41,450 nucleotides of DNA from a virus (taxonomy: Duplodnaviria > Caudoviricetes). The translations under genes were made by a program, and so were the position numbers. Positions 1,114-41,450 of the stretch are shown piece after piece; within the stretch, counting starts at the first letter, position 1, and each line of letters begins with the position of its first letter. A model generated the notes under the pieces. The model saw nothing but the letters and a program-made list of their open reading frames with translations, was not told where the DNA came from and did no database searches. The DNA lies in IMG/VR virus record IMGVR_UViG_3300017646_000178, positions 1-41,450 of that record. One strand, given 5' to 3'.

Positions 1114-1307
1114 GCCGCCTTCCTCGGTTGGACAACCAGCGAGTCTCGGAACGCCTCGAGGTCAGCGGGCCGGATCCGCAGGCCGCCGGCGAGCCGGTAC
1201 GCCTTCAGGTCGCCGCGGAGGATGTAGTTGTGGACGGTGCGCGGTGTGACTTTGAGGATTTTCGCGACCTCTTCTTTGGTGAGGTCCGGTTCGAGGTTCA
1301 CGCTCAC
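1110..1307 (-). CDS. xis: Excisionase-like HTH protein
   Basis: LTKEEVAKILKVTPRTVHNYILRGDLKAYRLAGGLRIRPADLEAF is a typical HTH_17/excisionase pattern; GTGA-coupled to int. Confidence 0.85.
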   Translation of the reverse strand: MSVNLEPDLTKEEVAKILKVTPRTVHNYILRGDLKAYRLAGGLRIRPADLEAFRDSLVVQPRKAA

Positions 1308-2167
1308 TCCCCCGTCCCCTCCTCGTTTACCTGTTCACCGGCAGCCCGGCCCCCGTCACCGAGCAGCGACAGGGGGCCATGGGCCTCGATCCCGGGTGAA
1401 AGCCAGACCGCTTCCGGGGCGAACGGCAACGTCCCGCCTTCCCGGGCTTGAACGGTGCGCCGCCTCCGAAGATCACGCCGGGTCCATCCGGCATCTTCCA
1501 GCCGGACGGATTCCTCGCAGGGGTAGCCGGACAGAACCACGGCGGCGTTCTCGACCGTGAGCAGCTGATCGACCAGACGGGTCCAAATATCCGGGTCGTC
1601 GTGCCGATACCCCTTGTGCGGCTGGGTGCGCGACGGGCCCGCGTAGGGCGGGTCGCAGTAGATCAGGCAGTCCTCAACATCCCATCGGGCGATCACGTCA
1701 ATGGCGTCGGTGGATTCCAGTGCGACACCTTGAAGCCGGGTCGCGGCCGCAAGGATCTTCGGCGGAAGATTCCTCCAGGTTCCCGGCTGCCACCGGCCCC
1801 GGCCACAGGGCACGGACCATGATTCGCGGGACCGGGAGAATGACTGGTCGATCCGGGCCAGGAACCGCCTCGCGGCCTCGACATCATCCTCGGCGGGCTG
1901 GTCACTTGCTTTCCATTCGGCGCGGCTGTACGGGGTTGTGGCCACCGCCTCGGCCAGTTCCTCCGGGCGTTCACGAATCACTTTCCAGAACCGCATTACG
2001 TCGCCGTCAAGATCGTTCAGGGTTTCGCGCTCAGCGGGTTCCTTCGCGAAGAGGACAGCGGCACCCCCGGCGAACGGCTCAACGTAGATTCGGTGGGCCG
2101 GGAACAGCTGGACGATCTGCTCGGCCATGCCTTGCTTCCCGCCGTAGTAGGTGAGCGGGGTTCTCAC
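1304..2167 (-). CDS. DNA adenine methyltransferase (Dam/D12 class)
   Basis: YYGGK, YVEPFAGGAAV (motif I), LNDLD, YCDPPY (motif IV). Confidence 0.92.
   Translation of the reverse strand: MRTPLTYYGGKQGMAEQIVQLFPAHRIYVEPFAGGAAVLFAKEPAERETLNDLDGDVMRFWKVIRERPEELAEAVATTPYSRAEWKASDQPAEDDVEAARRFLARIDQSFSRSRESWSVPCGRGRWQPGTWRNLPPKILAAATRLQGVALESTDAIDVIARWDVEDCLIYCDPPYAGPSRTQPHKGYRHDDPDIWTRLVDQLLTVENAAVVLSGYPCEESVRLEDAGWTRRDLRRRRTVQAREGGTLPFAPEAVWLSPGIEAHGPLSLLGDGGRAAGEQVNEEGTGE
1316..1345. repeat. Junction repeat A, copy 1 (30 bp)
   Basis: CCCCTCCTCGTTTACCTGTTCACCGGCAGC, identical at 2173-2202 and 2631-2660. Confidence 0.95.
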
Positions 2168-2625
2168 TTCTGCCCCTCCTCGTTTACCTGTTCACCGGCA
2201 GCCGGCCCATTTGAGGGAGCGCTAAACGCGCTCTGGCGTGCCGGAGCATCCACCGGACCATTACGCGGGTCCAGAAGATCCATCTGCCCTTTCGGTGGCC
2301 GTGGCCCACGCTTCGGCCTGTCGTCCGGCTCATCGAAGCCACGCCGTTCCGGGCAAGTCGCACTCTCGGTGTAGGTCGACCCCTCAACCAGGGTGCCGTT
2401 TGGACCTGGCTGCAAGAACCCGGCCCGGAGTCCCATAGCTGCGTCTAGATGCTGGCCTATGCCAGAGATCGAAAGAGCGAACTCGATCTCACATGCCGGT
2501 GGGCACCTGTCGGCTTCCGGCTTGTATTTTCGGCAGCCTTCGCAGTTCCTTCCAAGCCATATTTCGTACTGGGTGTGGTTCGAGAAGGGCCGGTACTCAT
2601 CTTCGGGCTTGTAGACCTGGCTCAC
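2164..2625 (-). CDS. Hypothetical Cys-rich phage protein
   Basis: GTGA-coupled ORF; NCEGC...CPPAC motifs. Confidence 0.7.
   Translation of the reverse strand: MSQVYKPEDEYRPFSNHTQYEIWLGRNCEGCRKYKPEADRCPPACEIEFALSISGIGQHLDAAMGLRAGFLQPGPNGTLVEGSTYTESATCPERRGFDEPDDRPKRGPRPPKGQMDLLDPRNGPVDAPARQSAFSAPSNGPAAGEQVNEEGQK
2173..2202. repeat. Junction repeat A, copy 2
   Basis: Exact 30-bp match to 1316-1345. Confidence 0.95.
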
Positions 2626-3560
2626 CGTTCCCCCTCCTCGTTTACCTGTTCACCGGCAGCGCGGCCCCCGTCACCCTCAACAGGAGAGACAGCGGCGACG
2701 GGGGCCTCTGGGTTAGGGGCTCCGGCATTCGCCTCCGCCTGGGTTTGGTCTTCGGCGGGAGCAACCTCGCCGTCATACCGAAAGCCAGCCAGCTTGATCG
2801 GGCCTTCGAGAATCGGGTATTCGAGTTCGCCCTCCCCCGTCGCCCGGAAAGCCGAACCGGCACCCAGCGCCCACTCGCCCTTCTTCGGCACCCGTCGCTC
2901 GCCGGTCTCCAAGAAGAACCAGTAATCACCGTCACGCCAATGACGATGAACCTTCGGCAAGTGCGGGTTCGCCCACTTGAACGCCGCAGCCAGCGCGTCT
3001 TCCAGAATCGACTGGTCGTCTTCGTCCAGGTCGATGTAGCCGAGAAAGGTCCGGGCCGCAACGGAAAGCCACTCGTCCGTCGTTTCGTTCCGGGACCCAC
3101 CCTGGCCGGTCGTGACCGCAGAGGCGAAGCCTCCCTCAACCCAATTCAGAACCGCATCGAGCGCCGCCACCCATCCGTTCCGGAAGCGGTAATCGGCATA
3201 CGGCCCAATCGTGGTCTTGAGGCTCCGCACGGTCGTTACCAGTTCGCTACGCCCCGCTTCTATTCGGGGATCAACAGGGGCGGATGCCGCCTCAAGGATC
3301 GCCGGAAGGTCGGCGCAATCGGCGTAGTGGGCGTTCTTTCCGTCCGGTTGGGGGTGGCCGCAGGTCGGGCACCTTTCGGGGGCAGGGGAAGGAGTAGGCC
3401 GGTCAGGGGGGGCAGCGTCGAATTTGCCGTGCTTATGGCACTCGCCTTTCATACCCATCCCGCACCGAAATGAGTAAGGGCCATCCCAGTCCTGTACCGG
3501 GCAGCCAGCTTTCCCGTCCTCGACGGCCAGCCAAGCCCGTTCCTCGCTCTCAGCGCACAT
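2622..3560 (-). CDS. Hypothetical mosaic phage protein with Cys/His clusters
   Basis: 312-aa ORF in the coupled chain; CxxxxxxxCxxHG and CPTCGH...H...C clusters. Confidence 0.65.
   Translation of the reverse strand: MCAESEERAWLAVEDGKAGCPVQDWDGPYSFRCGMGMKGECHKHGKFDAAPPDRPTPSPAPERCPTCGHPQPDGKNAHYADCADLPAILEAASAPVDPRIEAGRSELVTTVRSLKTTIGPYADYRFRNGWVAALDAVLNWVEGGFASAVTTGQGGSRNETTDEWLSVAARTFLGYIDLDEDDQSILEDALAAAFKWANPHLPKVHRHWRDGDYWFFLETGERRVPKKGEWALGAGSAFRATGEGELEYPILEGPIKLAGFRYDGEVAPAEDQTQAEANAGAPNPEAPVAAVSPVEGDGGRAAGEQVNEEGER
2631..2660. repeat. Junction repeat A, copy 3
   Basis: Exact 30-bp match; identity with copy 1 extends to 45 bp with one mismatch (to 2675). Confidence 0.95.
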
Positions 3561-23209: not shown

Positions 23210-24283
23210 CTACTTGTAGGCGGCGACGTCGTTGACGACGGTGACCGTGAAGTCGGACTCCGCGATCTCGTCGTACGAGGCCCGCCAGTCCAGCTGGTAC
23301 TGGTGGCGTGCCTGGTTCTTCAACGTCTCCAGGTCACCGGAGGCGTACTGGGCGTTCGGAGCCTCGATCCACATCGAGTACGGGTAGCCGGCCGATCCGG
23401 ACCCGGACCCGGAACCGCTGCCGGAGCCGCTGGTGCCGGCGATCTCCTGCTCGCTGATCATGGAGCAGGAGACCGCGAACGACTCGGCCGCGACCAGGGC
23501 ATCCCAGTCGGCGCTGTCGAGCTGCCGGCGAGTGATCGACCCGGACAGACGCAGGAACCCTTCCGGGCTGTTGGCCCGTTCGGTCGCGGACGGCCAGCCG
23601 GTCGCGGACCCGAGGTCGCGAACGTACTCGAGCGACTGCTCCAGGGTGAGCTCGACGTTCTCCATCAGCGCGGACCCGATGCCCCAGTCGACCTGGACGT
23701 TGCGACGACGCATCGGCAGAAGCGCGAAAGCGTCGTAGTCGTCCGGGTCACCGTCGCCGGGGTCGGCGGTGAGACGGTTCATGTAGTTCGCCATCAACGT
23801 GGCGTTCGCCTTGACTCCGTCTTCCTCGATCGCAAGCGCGAGCTGGGGGATCGTGACGCCACGGGACCGGAAGAACGTGGACCCGTAGTTCAGGGTCAGC
23901 CTGCCGGACCTGGGGGTCACCCCGGCCTTCTTCTGGAACACGTGCCGGTAGGCGCCGGCAGGGATCGTGTTGCCGTCCGGGTCGGTGATCAGCCCGTCCC
24001 CCGGGGTGGTGGTCACGTCACCTATCAGCACGTACAGGATCGCGCCGAGCGTGTTGACGTAGTTCCGGAGGTTGATCGACCCCTCCGGGGCGTACTCGTT
24101 CGCGGCGAGCGGCAGCGACCCGTCGATGCCTCGCTGCTCGTCGTCACGATTCAGCGGGTTCGGGGCGGGCTGGATTCCCACCTCGGTGGAGGGAAGGAAG
24201 AACGGGGTGCCGAAAACCGCCTGGTCGTTGGTTTCGGTGCCCTGTCCGTTCGTTTCGATTTCGAACTTGGCGTGGCGCGGCAT
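23210..24283 (-). CDS. Major tail tube protein with internal (GS)n loop
   Basis: Position, size, strong AAGGAGG RBS, YRHVF motif; [15 protein letters not shown] insert. Confidence 0.8.
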   Translation of the reverse strand: MPRHAKFEIETNGQGTETNDQAVFGTPFFLPSTEVGIQPAPNPLNRDDEQRGIDGSLPLAANEYAPEGSINLRNYVNTLGAILYVLIGDVTTTPGDGLITDPDGNTIPAGAYRHVFQKKAGVTPRSGRLTLNYGSTFFRSRGVTIPQLALAIEEDGVKANATLMANYMNRLTADPGDGDPDDYDAFALLPMRRRNVQVDWGIGSALMENVELTLEQSLEYVRDLGSATGWPSATERANSPEGFLRLSGSITRRQLDSADWDALVAAESFAVSCSMISEQEIAGTSGSGSGSGSGSGSAGYPYSMWIEAPNAQYASGDLETLKNQARHQYQLDWRASYDEIAESDFTVTVVNDVAAYK

Positions 24284-26644: not shown

Positions 26645-28104
26645 CAGGCGTCGAACGGTCCGTAGTTGACGGTCATCGAGAACAGGGGCGGGGCGTCCGG
26701 AATGGATGTGTGCCGGAACACGGTCACGGTGCCGTCGGTGAGGATCTGGATGCCGGCACGTGGCATGGTGCTGCCGCTCAGGGAGTTGGCGGCGGTGACC
26801 TGGTGGGTCAGATTCACTAGCGGCCGGTAGCCGACGGGCAGCGGGCTTGACAGCACCTCCGCGCCCGTGTAGTCGAGGCTGATGCAGGCCTGGATCTCGA
26901 CCCATCCGTCCGCGTCCTTTCGATACCTGAACGCGCCGATGGAGTCGCCCAGGGTCGGGTAGATCCACGGGTCGCCACCTCCGCCGCCGGCGATCGCCTG
27001 AACCGCCGAGGCGAAATCCTCCCCGCTCATCGGCACGAACTGATTGGTGTCCGGGTCAGCGATGACGAAGGACGAATCCTCGAGGTCGCCATCCCATGAG
27101 AGCCAGTCGGCCTCGACGCCGGCGAGATGATGATGGGTGGTGTTCGCCTTCCCCGCGAGCGCCGTAGCCAGCCCGTCAATATCGCTCTGGGTGTGGGTGT
27201 GCGCGGTCGGCGTCCGGGCGTTCGAGAGCCGAGCGTCGGAATCGGTCACGTACTTGTTACCGGCCCCGGGCGACCCCGCCGTGCCCGCAAGCGCCGCTTT
27301 CTCACCCGACGAAGGAAACCGACCATCCCCCGTGTCAGCCTTCCCCGACAGCGCATCCGACAACCCGTCAACATCCGAAACCTCATGCGAATGCGCCTTC
27401 GGTTCCCTCGCGTCCGACAACCTCGAATCCTGATTGGTCACATACTTGTTGTCGGAACCCGGGGTGCCGGCCGTGCCCGCCAAGGCGTTCTTCTCACCCG
27501 ACGTCGGGAACCGGCTGTCATCACCGGCCGCCGCATGGGTCGAACCCGTACCCAACCGCCGCAAAGACTCGTCCGTCGCGGCTGCGCTACCGGACGGCTT
27601 CAGCGACGAGTGAACCTTCGCGGCGGTCACCGACCCGTCAATCGGGGTTCTCGCGTCCGTCAGTCGCGCATCGTCGTCATAAACCAGGTCGCTGGTGTCG
27701 GTGATCCCATGAACCGACGTGGTCGCGGACTCATGGTCCGACAGAGCTGAATCGTCCACCTTCGCGCTGAGCGCATCACCAAGCCCGTCAACATCGGAAA
27801 TCTGATGAGAGTGCTCGGTCGGTTCTCTGGCATCGGACAGCCGCGGATCGGAGTCAGTCACGAACATGTTGGTGCCGGACGGAGTGCCGTTGGTGCCGGC
27901 CAACGCCGCCATCGTGTCCTCATCCAGACCCGACCCGACATTCCCCAGAGCCTCCCAGATCGCGGCGTCCGCCTCCTCGAGCGCGCCGACGGCACCGTCG
28001 ATCCGTGACTCCAGATCGTTCGCCTCCACATCCCGGAAACGCGAGGCGTCCGACGTGTCGAACGGATACCGGGTGTACGTTCTGGGTTCGAAGTTCTCGC
28101 TCAA
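26644..28104 (-). CDS. Fibre-like protein with three internal repeats
   Basis: Three copies of ALAGT.G.P...N..VT..D.RLS.AR.P..H.H..SD.DGL..AL..K; C-terminal receptor-binding-like domain (YRK..G.V...LP.GYRP). Confidence 0.75.
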   Translation of the reverse strand: MSENFEPRTYTRYPFDTSDASRFRDVEANDLESRIDGAVGALEEADAAIWEALGNVGSGLDEDTMAALAGTNGTPSGTNMFVTDSDPRLSDAREPTEHSHQISDVDGLGDALSAKVDDSALSDHESATTSVHGITDTSDLVYDDDARLTDARTPIDGSVTAAKVHSSLKPSGSAAATDESLRRLGTGSTHAAAGDDSRFPTSGEKNALAGTAGTPGSDNKYVTNQDSRLSDAREPKAHSHEVSDVDGLSDALSGKADTGDGRFPSSGEKAALAGTAGSPGAGNKYVTDSDARLSNARTPTAHTHTQSDIDGLATALAGKANTTHHHLAGVEADWLSWDGDLEDSSFVIADPDTNQFVPMSGEDFASAVQAIAGGGGGDPWIYPTLGDSIGAFRYRKDADGWVEIQACISLDYTGAEVLSSPLPVGYRPLVNLTHQVTAANSLSGSTMPRAGIQILTDGTVTVFRHTSIPDAPPLFSMTVNYGPFDA

Positions 28105-28382
28105 AGGCGCCGACCCTCCCGGCCTGCCCTACGAGCTGCCCAGCCCTTCAACCGGCGCGGCTGACGACGCCGCTCACGGCGACGTTCGTTCTCTCGTTCG
28201 ATTTCCCGGCCACGGGCCGCCGCCTCCTCCGGAGTAAGCGGACGATCGTTGAACACGCGGGCACCCTCCCGCCTCTTCACGAACCCATCCTTGTTCTCGA
28301 ACTCGCCAGCGTCACGCACGACCAAACTCCTTCCGCCAGGCCCACAGATCCTGCACCTGATCAAAGTCATCGGTTTCATCAA
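28101..28382 (-). CDS. Small basic hypothetical protein
   Basis: GTGA-coupled to the fibre gene but overlaps the upstream gene by ~70 nt. Confidence 0.45.
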   Translation of the reverse strand: MMKPMTLIRCRICGPGGRSLVVRDAGEFENKDGFVKRREGARVFNDRPLTPEEAAARGREIERENERRRERRRQPRRLKGWAARRAGREGRRL

Positions 28383-29007
28383 CCGGGGTTTCCACCCACC
28401 CGTTCTCCCGAGTTGCCAGCCCCGTCAACTTCCGGCGCTCGCTACGGGTGTAAGTCAGGCCGCCGGTGTGCCGATGCCAGAAAAACCGCCACGGTCCACC
28501 ACGCCGGTTCATGCCCTTCACACCCGCCACCGCCTTGGCGACCCGTTCGACCTCGTCAACATCCTCGGGAACCCGGAACGACAGACCGAACGATTCGGAC
28601 CGGCGATGATGCTTCTGCGACAACGCCCGTCCGTAGATCGTGGGCTGGTCCGGGTCATGGTCCAGAATCACATCCAGGGTCGCGTCGGTGTAGAACACGT
28701 CCCCGTACACACCCACCACCCGGCCCTGCTCCGGCCAGTACGGACGATGGTCGAGGAACTTGCCCATCTCTCCCATCCAGTCCTCGTGGGCGGCCTCCAC
28801 CGGATTCAGGCCCTGCCACGCCCGGTTCGCGGGATCCCGCACCACCGTCAACGGATCATGTCCGCGGTCGGTGAGCATCCGGAACGTCCGGTGGATGATC
28901 GGTTCGCCGTCCACCTCGGTGAACTGCTTCAAACCGACCGCGCCGGACTTCTGCCACCGGGTCTGTTTACCGGCGGCAAGGATCAGAACCGTCACGGATT
29001 CCGACAT
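28312..29007 (-). CDS. Nucleotidyltransferase (GT-A fold; LicC/NTP_transf-like)
   Basis: ILAAG.QTRW...K....DGEPII.RT...YGDVFY. Confidence 0.8.
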   Translation of the reverse strand: MSESVTVLILAAGKQTRWQKSGAVGLKQFTEVDGEPIIHRTFRMLTDRGHDPLTVVRDPANRAWQGLNPVEAAHEDWMGEMGKFLDHRPYWPEQGRVVGVYGDVFYTDATLDVILDHDPDQPTIYGRALSQKHHRRSESFGLSFRVPEDVDEVERVAKAVAGVKGMNRRGGPWRFFWHRHTGGLTYTRSERRKLTGLATRENGWVETPVDETDDFDQVQDLWAWRKEFGRA

Positions 29008-29040
29008 GAACGACCTGCCTTTCCGTCAGATACGAAAGAA

Positions 29041-29123
29041 CAGAGGGCGGGGGAGTCGAACCCCGGGCCAGGAGGCCCCCACCGGGTTTGAAGTCCGGTT
29101 TGCCGCCACCGGCGGCACCCTCT
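29041..29123 (-). tRNA. Atypical class-II tRNA, anticodon UCA (opal-reading; Ser/Sec-like)
   Basis: AGAGGGUG/CGCCCUCU acceptor, G discriminator, GCCGCC-GGU-GGCGGC D arm, ACCGG(A)-CUUCAAA-(C)CCGGU anticodon arm, GGGCC-UCCU-GGCCC variable arm, GGGG-UUCGACU-CCCC T arm; CCA not encoded. Confidence 0.85.
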
Positions 29124-29202
29124 TGAAACGTGGTGGTGCCGGGTCGTGTGCCGGCGCCCCGATCGGTCCAGGGCACGCCCTTCCAACGTGCCGTCACCCG
29201 AT

Positions 29203-29307
29203 CTAGACGCCGGACCCGGAACCACTGCCCGAGCCCGAGCCCGAGCCTGACCCTGAACCGAAACCCGATCCAGAGCCAGAACCCGAGCCCGAACCCGAGC
29301 CGGAACC
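29203..29307 (-). CDS. In-frame (Gly-Ser)n readthrough extension of the capsid gene
   Basis: 34 codons [34 protein letters not shown] after the TGA, ending in TAG, with varied synonymous codons. Confidence 0.75.
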
Positions 29308-30717
29308 TCAGCTGCTGCCCGAACCGGAGCCGGAGCCGGAGATCAGACCGAGATCCGGGCCGATCACGCCGGGCTTCACGCCCTCGATCACCTCGAACGA
29401 CTCGCCCCGCACGACCAGGAACCCGGAGCGTTCCTCACCACGGAACCAGGTCGAGTTGTTCTTGAACCCGAGCGACGTGTCCACGTCAACCCGGAACGGG
29501 GTCCGGTCGAACACGACCGCGTCCTGGAAGTTCCCGACGATGATCGGGGACTCGTCCTGGCCCGTGCCCTGGTCGACCGGGATGATCGGATCCTGGGTGA
29601 CCGGCAGACCGAGCAGAACCGGCTTCGACTCCTGCTCCGGTGCCGAACCCGAACCCTGCGGGCTGCCGTACAGCCACCCGACCCCGGTCTCGAACGCGAG
29701 CGCGATCACCGTCCACACGGCCGGCGACAGCGCGATGTCGGTCGGGGTGCGCTTCCCGTTGATCCGGATGCGCTGGATCGACACGAACACCTGCTCGATG
29801 ATGTCCTTCGCCGTCACCGCGCCCGAACCCGAGCCCGAACCCGAACCCGAACCTGTCGCGCCGATGATGCGGCCGGGCACGTCCGGATCGGACAGCAGAC
29901 CGAGCGGCTCACCGGTGCCGCCCCCGAGCAGCGCCAGCCGGTTCTTCTCCGCCCCGACCGCGTACCCGAGCTCCGAGGCGATCCACGCCCTGGCCGCCGG
30001 GTAGTCCTCCAGCGTCTGGTTCGGCACCTGGGTCAGACCAGCAATCGTGAACGCCCGGGCATCGACCAGACCGAACGTCGGGTCCGACTCCGGCTTCGCG
30101 CCCATCTCCGCCACCACCTGGGCCTGGAGACCGGACGTGTACTTCGGCCACTCGACCGAGCTCGAGCTGATCTTGATGCGCCGACACAGCTGGATGAACG
30201 GGGTCGCGTGGTGAAGGAACGGCAGCGCCTCCTGAACCTCGGGGAGGATCAGGTCGACGTCCTCGAGGTCACCCGACGCCCACGCCTTGACGCGGTCTTC
30301 GGACTCGATCGCGTGCCGGTACTCGGCCAGCTCCGCCGCAAGCTGCGGGTTCTGAGCGGCGGTCTTCATGTCGAGGAAGAGGTTCTCCCCCTTGTACCGC
30401 TCGACCTTGCCGGTCTTGACCTCACCGTCGGCGGCGGCCTTCGCACCGTTCAGCGACCGCGGGTCACCCTCGGGAAGCTTCTCGAGCTCCTCGATCCGTT
30501 CCCGGAGCGCCTTGACCTCCGCGGACTCGTTCTCCTTGATCGCCTGGATCACGACCTCGGAGAGATCGTTCACCTCGGCGTTCCGCTTCTCGGCCTCGGC
30601 CTTCTGCAGCGGATCGTCCGTTTCGAGGGCCTTGCCGATCGCTTCGACCAGCCCTTCGCGGAGATGATCGAGACGGTCCTCGCTCTCCTTCTGTTTGTCC
30701 TTTGTCAAAAGTCCCAT
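29308..30717 (-). CDS. HK97-fold major capsid protein
   Basis: N-terminal coiled-coil delta domain; [42 protein letters not shown] motifs. Confidence 0.93.
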
Positions 30718-37304: not shown

Positions 37305-37376
37305 TAGCGGGCACCGGATTCGAACCGGTCTCTCTCGGGAATGGGCCGAGCGTGGTCACCTATCCACTAGCCCGCG
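37305..37376 (-). tRNA. tRNA-fMet-like gene (CAU) with non-canonical anticodon loop
   Basis: Full cloverleaf, unpaired C1, GGUUCGAAUCC T arm, anticodon loop CCCAUUC. Confidence 0.7.
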
Positions 37377-41141: not shown

Positions 41142-41442
41142 GGTGGCTGCAGTTTTGGCCTCCATGCGGCAGTAATCGCAGCCACCCTTCAGGAGGTCGC
41201 GGCCCGACGAAGCCCATGGACCATGGGTGGCTGCAGTTCTAGCCTCCATGCCGCAGTAATCGCAGCCACCCTTCAGGTGGTCGCGGCCCGACGAAGCCCA
41301 TGGACCATGGGTGGCTGCAGTTTTGGCCTCCATGCCGCGGAAATCGCAGCCACCCTTCAGGTGGTCGCGGCCCGACGAAGCCCATGGACCATGGGTGGCT
41401 GCAGTTTTGGCCTCCATGCCGCGGAAATCGCAGCCACCCTTC
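41142..41442. repeat. 84-bp tandem palindromic repeat (~3.6 units), REP/BIME-like, host side
   Basis: Units start at 41142, 41226, 41310, 41394; each has GGTGGCTGC...GCAGCCACC arms and a CCCATGG-A-CCATGGG linker. Confidence 0.9.
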
Positions 41443-41450
41443 GGGCAGCC

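Follow-up and report, generated by a model that had tools for sequence, protein, structure and literature searches.

A capsid UGA codon, a Gly-Ser extension and a UCA-anticodon tRNA gene in an uncultured tailed phage: a candidate readthrough cassette

Does a tailed phage carry its own tRNA to read through the stop codon of its capsid gene? This question is raised by the IMG/VR record IMGVR_UViG_3300017646_000178, which was studied over its whole length (41,450 nt, hereafter the window) and which belongs to an uncultured tailed phage (Caudoviricetes). Its major capsid gene ends in UGA, the same frame continues as a Gly-Ser repeat, and a tRNA gene with the anticodon UCA lies shortly downstream on the same strand. 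A first-pass annotation had proposed that the phage supplies a late opal suppressor, so that a fraction of the capsid subunits carries a longer tail. Herein, we weigh this proposal against its rivals. The features are collected in Table 1.

Table 1. Features of the window discussed in the text
Feature	Position	Strand	Remarks
HK97-type major capsid protein, 469 aa, short Gly-Ser C-terminal tail	30717-29308	-	PF05065, PHROG 10
Capsid UGA stop, candidate readthrough codon	29310-29308	-	Ser slot of Gly-Ser register; present in X3 strain
34-codon Gly-Ser extension and UAG stop	29307-29203 (UAG 29205-29203)	-	third-position bias, p 5e-6
Predicted 34-bp RNA stem, 5-nt loop (29265-29261) at the single Phe codon	29300-29227	-	-63 kcal/mol
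8/4 tRNA-Ser-type gene, UCA anticodon (29091-29089)	29123-29041	-	G73, long variable arm, no encoded CCA
Nucleotidyltransferase-fold gene directly 3' of the tRNA	29007-28312	-	NTP_transf_3, 4.5e-5
Internal Gly-Ser loop of capsid	29853-29824	-	in 0 of 24 aligned homologs
Gly-Ser loop in putative major tail protein (23210-24283)	23431-23396	-	in window and P0198, absent from 11 of 12 aligned homologs
Short Gly-Ser C-terminus of 148-aa head-tail-region protein	25962-25945	-	sequence
WbqC-like gene ahead of portal	34246-33644	-	PF08889, 1.4e-26
Host-type tRNA(CAU)	41054-40981	-	candidate attachment site

The phage is temperate, with a GC content of 64.6% and its late genes on the minus strand, where the order is terminase, WbqC-like, portal, protease, capsid, tail genes, tape measure, endolysin, RecT and integrase. 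The sequencing runs that cover it best are soil and activated sludge metagenomes. The tRNA(CAU) probably marks the attachment site, and about five copies of a 60-bp repeat (41150-41450) lie upstream of it. Among the matches listed for the tRNA(CAU) pattern, 75 of 80 genomes are Actinomycetota, mostly Solirubrobacterales. The host class is tentatively given as Thermoleophilia, which is a guess because the best genome match to this tRNA shares only 71 of 75 letters. Two further observations concern other regions of the minus strand. A second odd tRNA-like gene (37305-37376; anticodon CAT according to ARAGORN, score under the Rfam cut-off) lies at the start of the late region, and three neighbouring early genes (1304-3560) share the C-terminal peptide AAGEQVNEEG, pointing to a putative repeated intergenic module.

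The capsid stop, its Gly-Ser frame and a predicted RNA stem

The capsid protein matches the Pfam family Phage_capsid with an E-value of 1.5e-34. Its TGA and the open Gly-Ser frame of 34 codons to TAG were found exactly where the first-pass annotation had placed them. The extension encodes 17 Gly, 15 Ser, 1 Phe and 1 Val, with the Gly codons GGC (8), GGT (6), GGG (2) and GGA (1) and the Ser codons TCG (7), TCC (3), TCT (2), TCA (2) and AGT (1). The TGA occupies a Ser position of the repeat and is one base away from TCA, and the closing UAG is unreadable by a UCA-anticodon tRNA. The computed extra mass of the extended capsid is 2,609 Da with Ser at the UGA, in line with the earlier estimate of about 2.6 kDa, versus 2,709 Da with Trp and 2,672 Da with Sec. 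No frameshift slippery site is evident by eye near the capsid stop, and no promoter-like or terminator-like site was found in 28900-29500.

Departures from the commonest Gly-Ser hexamer fall at third codon positions in 19 of 24 cases (binomial test), which argues that the in-frame extension is under coding constraint, a signal that may also date from an earlier time when the tail was coded throughout. A DNA microsatellite or DNA inverted repeat was rejected, since the changes lie at third positions and the stem described below relies on G-U pairs. The shadow of a plus-strand Glu-Pro repeat was likewise rejected for the window, where the motif lies in frame within minus-strand structural genes.

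The reality of the stop was assessed in other sequences. Three further assemblies (L001, L269 and L270) are identical across the cassette and represent the same phage rather than independent cases. A strain from sludge with a 98% identical capsid (X3 contig, which stems from a separate study) differs at 21 of 752 letters over 29149-29900 and keeps the UGA and the tail; within 29149-29560 it has seven differences, of which one lies two codons ahead of the stop, and both stop and tail are free of changes. The protein P0214, probably encoded by the X3 contig, is identical to the capsid at 459 of 469 residues and has the same C-terminal end. A sequencing error, which the earlier annotation had named as a way for its proposal to fail, was therefore rejected: neither X3 nor P0214 shows a sense codon, and since X3 keeps the stop, it is not private to one isolate either. 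The X3 contigs stop short of the tRNA; because the X3 tail is unchanged, it yields no estimate of selection. Most other metagenome pieces that match the tail are unrelated repeats.

None of the 24 aligned capsid homologs (43-63% identity) has an internal Gly-Ser loop or a C-terminal Gly-Ser run, and among 176 capsid-like proteins only the query carries such a C-terminal run. All eight related capsid loci end the gene with TAA or TAG and have neither tail nor tRNA; at 42-62% identity, relatives thus share neither the UGA nor the extension. In most of them the gene after the capsid encodes a small basic protein, whose counterpart here lies at 28101-28334 (assigned by eye). Given that the capsid gene of most relatives adjoins this gene, the tail, the tRNA and the nucleotidyltransferase-fold gene look like a single insertion.

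The predicted RNA stem begins 7 nt past the capsid UGA. As Gly-Ser repeats pair with themselves in any case, a dinucleotide shuffle (z -4.4) was replaced by synonymous permutation and by 46 control repeats. When the stop and tail were permuted together, none of 1000 versions folded as well (z -3.7), and when the tail was permuted alone, one of 1000 did (z -4.4). In the comparison with the control Gly-Ser-frame repeats, the stem had a z of -5.4, versus a mean of +0.33 and a minimum of -2.0 for the controls, none of which fell under -3; the controls comprised one window per locus (46 of 84 windows) and were mostly of lower GC than the phage. In the inner stem, third positions pair with each other five times, always as Watson-Crick pairs, and these are built with TCT, TCA and GGA, codons that are rare in the phage; TCT and TCA each account for 17 of the 406 late Ser codons and are absent from the capsid gene. 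Around the Phe codon, 4 of 4 pairs are Watson-Crick (P 0.0013, for an axis picked after the fold had been seen). The total of Watson-Crick pairs is not above that of the permutations (26 versus 24-26), and the gain is an unbroken stem; 13 G-U pairs are kept, most of them forced by the Gly-Ser code. The 100 nt past the capsid stop fold at -63.5 kcal/mol, versus -20 to -50 kcal/mol for the other 22 stops checked, and this strong predicted fold offers a possible basis for stop selectivity.

Collectively, these results suggest that the extension region is constrained both as peptide and as RNA. The synonymous variation had been read earlier as selection on a peptide rather than a DNA microsatellite. 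The third-position bias bears out the second half of that reading; the first holds in part, since the same codon choices also build the hairpin and are not a sign of peptide selection alone.

The UCA tRNA and its relatives

The tRNA gene starts 79 nt past the TAG, as had been annotated. It is missed by ARAGORN with default settings and found once the threshold is lowered. In its predicted fold, 8 of 8 acceptor pairs and 4 of 4 T-stem pairs are formed, whereas the 7/5 register is broken by a C-C. The tRNA combines G73 with a 5-bp variable stem (SerRS elements) and also has G2-C71, A3-U70 and C11-G24, which we take to be Ser identity elements. Guided by its family, the D arm has a 4-bp stem and a 4-nt loop; this stem can be extended only at the expense of the acceptor. 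Its weak points are an A31-C39 mismatch, A1-U72 in place of the G1 of all 12 other family members, and a cloverleaf that lies 3.2 kcal/mol above a competing fold. In the RNA run X18, one contig (depth 2.2) spans the tRNA and reaches into the gene that follows; as the DNA run X10 has a break close to the same point, this contig carries no weight.

The longest match to this tRNA in GenBank phages, a weak one (E 0.08), lies unannotated in the tRNA cluster of Mycobacterium phage StAugustine. It is an 8/4 tRNA with the Ser anticodon AGA and served as the starting point for collecting a family of tRNA-Ser genes from phages. All 13 members (the window tRNA and 12 phage tRNA-Ser) form acceptor pair 8, which covaries among three pair types, and the fifth T-stem pair, without which no 7/5 fold is possible, is broken in seven of them. 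The comparison omitted L552, L553 and L546, which are not clean 8/4 tRNAs, and L544, which is not a tRNA. Having been gathered by similarity to the window tRNA, the family is biased; four selC genes nonetheless align worse, with scores of 5-24, versus 36 for the tRNA-Ser(UGA) of L545 and 31 for the StAugustine tRNA-Ser(AGA). The L545 gene is identical at 61 of 83 letters with one gap, has the same acceptor-anticodon spacing and the same 4-bp D stem, and its anticodon UGA is one base from UCA. Judged by these sequence features, the UCA tRNA belongs to an 8/4 tRNA-Ser family carried by phages and matches the (8/4) tRNA-Ser or allo-tRNA class described in PMC5389517.

Genes of the 8/4 tRNA-Ser type are common in actinophages, often unannotated (L538:2500-2584; L548:3501-3581; L540:5992-6161; StAugustine and Poushou among them). 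A Solirubrobacterales genome carries an 8/4 allo-tRNA with the anticodon GAC (L499; G005:C1:1672124-1672216) whose T arm and 3' acceptor strand are near-identical to those of the window tRNA. The anticodon arm of the latter (29082-29099), including A31-C39, is identical to that of many proteobacterial selC genes; a chimeric origin, with a selC arm joined to a tRNA-Ser body, is conceivable. Four Thermoleophilia-class genomes (G083, G107, G113 and G131) hold several near-identical copies of the selC 3' part, some of them a few kb apart, which are possibly repeated integration sites.

The selC-type arm bears on a different explanation, in which the UCA tRNA would be an extra tRNA-Sec and the hairpin a SECIS, with host SelA and SelB inserting selenocysteine at the capsid UGA only. 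Such insertion would account for site specificity; the tRNA shares its anticodon arm with 120 selC-like genes, selC-like genes occur widely in Thermoleophilia, to which the host tentatively belongs, and 8/4 tRNA-Sec species have been reported for Rubrobacter and Chloroflexi (PMC5389517). The remainder of the molecule speaks otherwise. All 120 selC-like genes fetched via this anticodon arm have a T stem of at least 5 bp, and the 16 Thermoleophilia selC genes among the matches listed are all 8/5. The window tRNA was rejected as selC, being a plain 8/4 with no T-stem bulge and without a 6-bp D stem with a 4-nt loop, and its nearest relatives are tRNA-Ser. It scores 43.6 bits with the Rfam tRNA-Sec model (RF01852), under the 47-bit gathering cut-off, and this score is not diagnostic, since ordinary host tRNA-Ser genes outscore it at 46-47 bits. 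The bacterial SECIS model places the apical loop 16-37 nt from the UGA with a G in the first two loop positions (PMC13188914), whereas the loop here lies 42 nt from the UGA and begins with U, and the loop of a local alternative hairpin is 12 nt away. We consider selenocysteine insertion very improbable.

As a check, the first-pass annotation had named the co-occurrence of a capsid TGA-(GS)n and a downstream UCA tRNA in related phage and prophage genomes; no second lineage appeared in the sequence sets covered here. A search with the TGA-(GS)n pattern gave at least 193 matches in at least 135 viral loci (55 of them short-flanked), most of which are accounted for by the Glu-Pro shadow, and only one locus among the matches listed carries the cassette, namely this phage (L116). 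In 67 viral loci that match the UCA pattern, no second cassette was found, and this phage alone had a UGA-interrupted repeat nearby. A metagenome scan with the tRNA pattern gave two matches, both to this phage. No second cassette was found in 401 Thermoleophilia-class genomes (which held two distant capsids), among capsid relatives in viral contigs, GTDB and GenBank phages, or with tRNA patterns in viral contigs, GTDB and phylum samples. One further tRNA pattern, off by one base, could not match the window itself, and two of its four matches are family tRNAs.

Possible readthrough at one stop among many

TGA ends 16 of the 22 late genes, and no consistent backup stop follows. Because TGA is the main late stop, a strong suppressor would be harmful; the original suppressor proposal overlooked these stops, which any suppressor must tolerate. 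At the terminase TGA (35394-35392, minus strand), the in-frame ATG of the next gene lies one codon on, and suppression would fuse both proteins. A stop-recoded phage (code 4 or 25) was rejected, since TGA is in such general use as a stop and capsid, portal, protease, terminase and tape measure are all full length under code 11.

Our preferred reading, to which we assign a probability of roughly 0.55, is hairpin-assisted readthrough of the capsid UGA with Ser, which would add 35 residues to a minority of the subunits. Most ribosomes would halt at the UGA, and a few would insert Ser via the phage UCA tRNA and append the 34-residue Gly-Ser tail. We infer that the tRNA is excised from the late transcript, receives its CCA from host enzymes, is charged by the host seryl-tRNA synthetase (for which G73 and the long variable arm speak) and is delivered by EF-Tu. 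Other allo-tRNAs with a 12-bp branch insert Ser in E. coli (PMC5389517). The tRNA would be a weak suppressor competing with RF2, with the stem making readthrough more frequent here than at the remaining 15 late UGA stops, and the shell would be a mosaic in which part of the subunits is 2.6 kDa longer. The cassette likely originated by matching single changes, from the Ser codon TCA to TGA and from the tRNA-Ser anticodon UGA to UCA. The idea of a phage-supplied opal suppressor for the capsid thus gains from the 8/4 tRNA-Ser family, the Ser slot and the stem; against it stands the restriction of the cassette to one lineage among the sequences searched. A client role for the tRNA is also countered by the fact that phages often have tRNAs without a client in the head module, as in Poushou, where a lone 8/4 tRNA-Ser lies ahead of the scaffold gene.

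The same anatomy would be left behind if a once fully coded tail had been cut by a TCA-to-TGA change, with the hairpin acting as a terminator, mRNA stabiliser or processing site and the tRNA as a passenger or a softener of the mutation. A single change separates the stop from a Ser codon that occurs twice in the tail, the third-position bias would outlast a recent stop, 29149-29315 is unchanged in the X3 strain, as fits a recently shared segment, and a hairpin also follows the capsid stop in an unrelated phage contig (L012). A non-coding hairpin could, however, convert its 13 G-U pairs, whereas here the extra pairing arose at synonymous sites, and no terminator-like U tract was found at the hairpin. 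A relic would moreover require that a rare UCA tRNA lies by chance less than 200 nt from a repeat-interrupting UGA, a context found in 1 of 67 viral pattern loci. On balance, a relic tail is unlikely.

Genuine readthrough could instead be performed by a host near-cognate tRNA, of the tRNA-Trp kind used in Qbeta, together with the hairpin, leaving the phage tRNA inactive or incidental. Qbeta produces A1 by leakage at its coat UGA and has no tRNA of its own for this (PMC8880383); the irregular pairs of the window tRNA agree with inactivity, and the other 15 late UGA stops would be spared. Against this, a cognate UCA tRNA with Ser-type features adjoins, tRNA and tail are both absent from all eight related loci, and the UGA occupies a Ser slot. 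We regard this reading as distinctly improbable.

Alternatively, the UCA tRNA may be a general anti-host or early recoding device, of which the capsid tail would be the first by-product. Suppressor tRNAs in standard-code phages have been read as a step that precedes recoding (PMC7886860; bioRxiv 10.1101/2021.08.26.457843). Those lineages are, however, low in GC and depleted in the stop concerned, whereas this phage has a GC content of 64.6% and TGA as its main stop, and the hairpin would be left unexplained. This seems hardly probable.

In a fuller form of the preferred readthrough by Ser, which we hold to be tentative and rather doubtful, the tRNA-Ser-derived opal suppressor and the synonymous-codon stem would set the share of tailed subunits, and phage enzymes would then decorate the tail. 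The least certain step is a modification of the surface, directed by the phage, for which the 16 added serines would be the acceptors. The nucleotidyltransferase-fold protein is modelled with a pLDDT of 93.9 and matches the folds of GlmU, IspD and LicC, and the WbqC-like gene is a candidate second glycan-tailoring gene; no glycosyltransferase is recognisable by Pfam among the 52 ORFs scanned. Of the 16 homologs found for the putative major tail protein, 12 were aligned; its Gly-Ser insert is shared with P0198 (85%) and missing in the remaining 11. The Gly-Ser loops of the capsid and major tail protein are lineage-specific inserts and, with the nucleotidyltransferase-fold gene close to the capsid gene, candidate modification sites.

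The neighbourhood of L012 agrees with the modification idea, in that a relative of the nucleotidyltransferase-fold gene lies with a glycosyltransferase and methyltransferase cluster behind the capsid gene, whereas the Streptomyces phage Rooney does not fit. Nine Streptomyces phages have a distant relative of this gene, which overlaps a glycosyltransferase gene in six, and no Gly-Ser runs were found in the Rooney proteins checked. In L012 (111-5856), Gly-Ser runs occur in the capsid and two other proteins, one with 13 repeats; its capsid ends with a plain TAG, and no tRNA-like match was found.

Precedents and meaning

Each single part of the cassette has precedent. Like Qbeta A1 (PMC8880383), the extended capsid would be a longer subunit produced when ribosomes pass a leaky UGA that closes the coat gene; Qbeta, however, is an RNA phage that uses a host tRNA and adds a folded extension, whereas here a tailed dsDNA phage encodes the cognate tRNA itself and the tail is a low-complexity Gly-Ser repeat. 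The capsid and major tail frameshifts of T3/T7, A2, A118 and PSA (PMC5009743) also extend the C-terminus of some subunits by recoding, although by frameshifting, often with an Ig-like domain added and no tRNA gene.

The allo-tRNAs of PMC5389517 (the topic also of PMC7609411) share with the window tRNA the 8-bp acceptor, the 4-bp T stem, G73, the long variable arm and a phage-borne setting. The first sheet of the supplement lists eight rows with the UCA anticodon, from soil metatranscriptome polycistrons and with no client gene named; the window tRNA differs from these in sitting behind a candidate client and in having A1-U72. No translation test of UCA allo-tRNAs appears in the available part of that paper. 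The suppressor tRNAs of crAss-like, Agate and Jade phages (PMC7886860; bioRxiv 10.1101/2021.08.26.457843) likewise read a stop and are linked to late genes, but many genes are recoded in those phages, to Trp or Gln where the host keeps the standard code, whereas here TGA stays in use as the main stop, a single client is proposed and Ser is predicted. For phages with a code unlike that of the host, only Trp and Gln reassignments are reported in the part of the bioRxiv paper available.

Hairpin-stimulated readthrough is documented for eukaryotic viruses (PMC3159437; PMC13517186). The 3' stem-loops of alphaviruses and furoviruses (PMC3159437) resemble the predicted stem in the UGA, the short spacer and the extended stem within coding sequence (in the furovirus coat readthrough stem, the spacer is 7 nt and the structure spans 96 nt), but they act on eukaryotic ribosomes with host near-cognate tRNAs, and they are supported by conservation and mutagenesis, whereas the stem described here is supported by permutation only. 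No bacterial hairpin-stimulated readthrough apart from SECIS was found in the literature. In the virion glycosylation of mycobacteriophages Che8 and Rita (PMC11256854), phage sugar enzymes act and the capsid has possible acceptor serines, as may be the case here; the present phage differs in having nucleotidyltransferase-fold and WbqC-like genes only.

The combination of these parts in a tailed phage was not met in the open-access literature searched: no tailed phage was found that pairs a capsid readthrough stop with its own tRNA. The cassette is unusual and real, and its anatomy, as read from sequence, is well supported in the one lineage found, while the function given to it here is a proposed one.

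If the preferred reading is true, tailed phages would have a third route to mosaic capsids, in addition to frameshifting and to leaky stops that host tRNAs decode. A natural job would be found for those 8/4 tRNAs whose anticodon matches a stop, for which the 2017 description gave no client, and Ser would join Trp and Gln among the reassignments in phages of standard-code hosts, with UGA-to-Ser recoding aimed at a single gene in a standard-code phage. A 3' structure would steer readthrough on bacterial ribosomes beyond the Sec pathway. The 270-nt piece that holds the stop, the stem and the tRNA poses the question of whether a 3' RNA stem can render a suppressor tRNA site-selective in bacteria, and such site-selective suppression bears on genetic code expansion.
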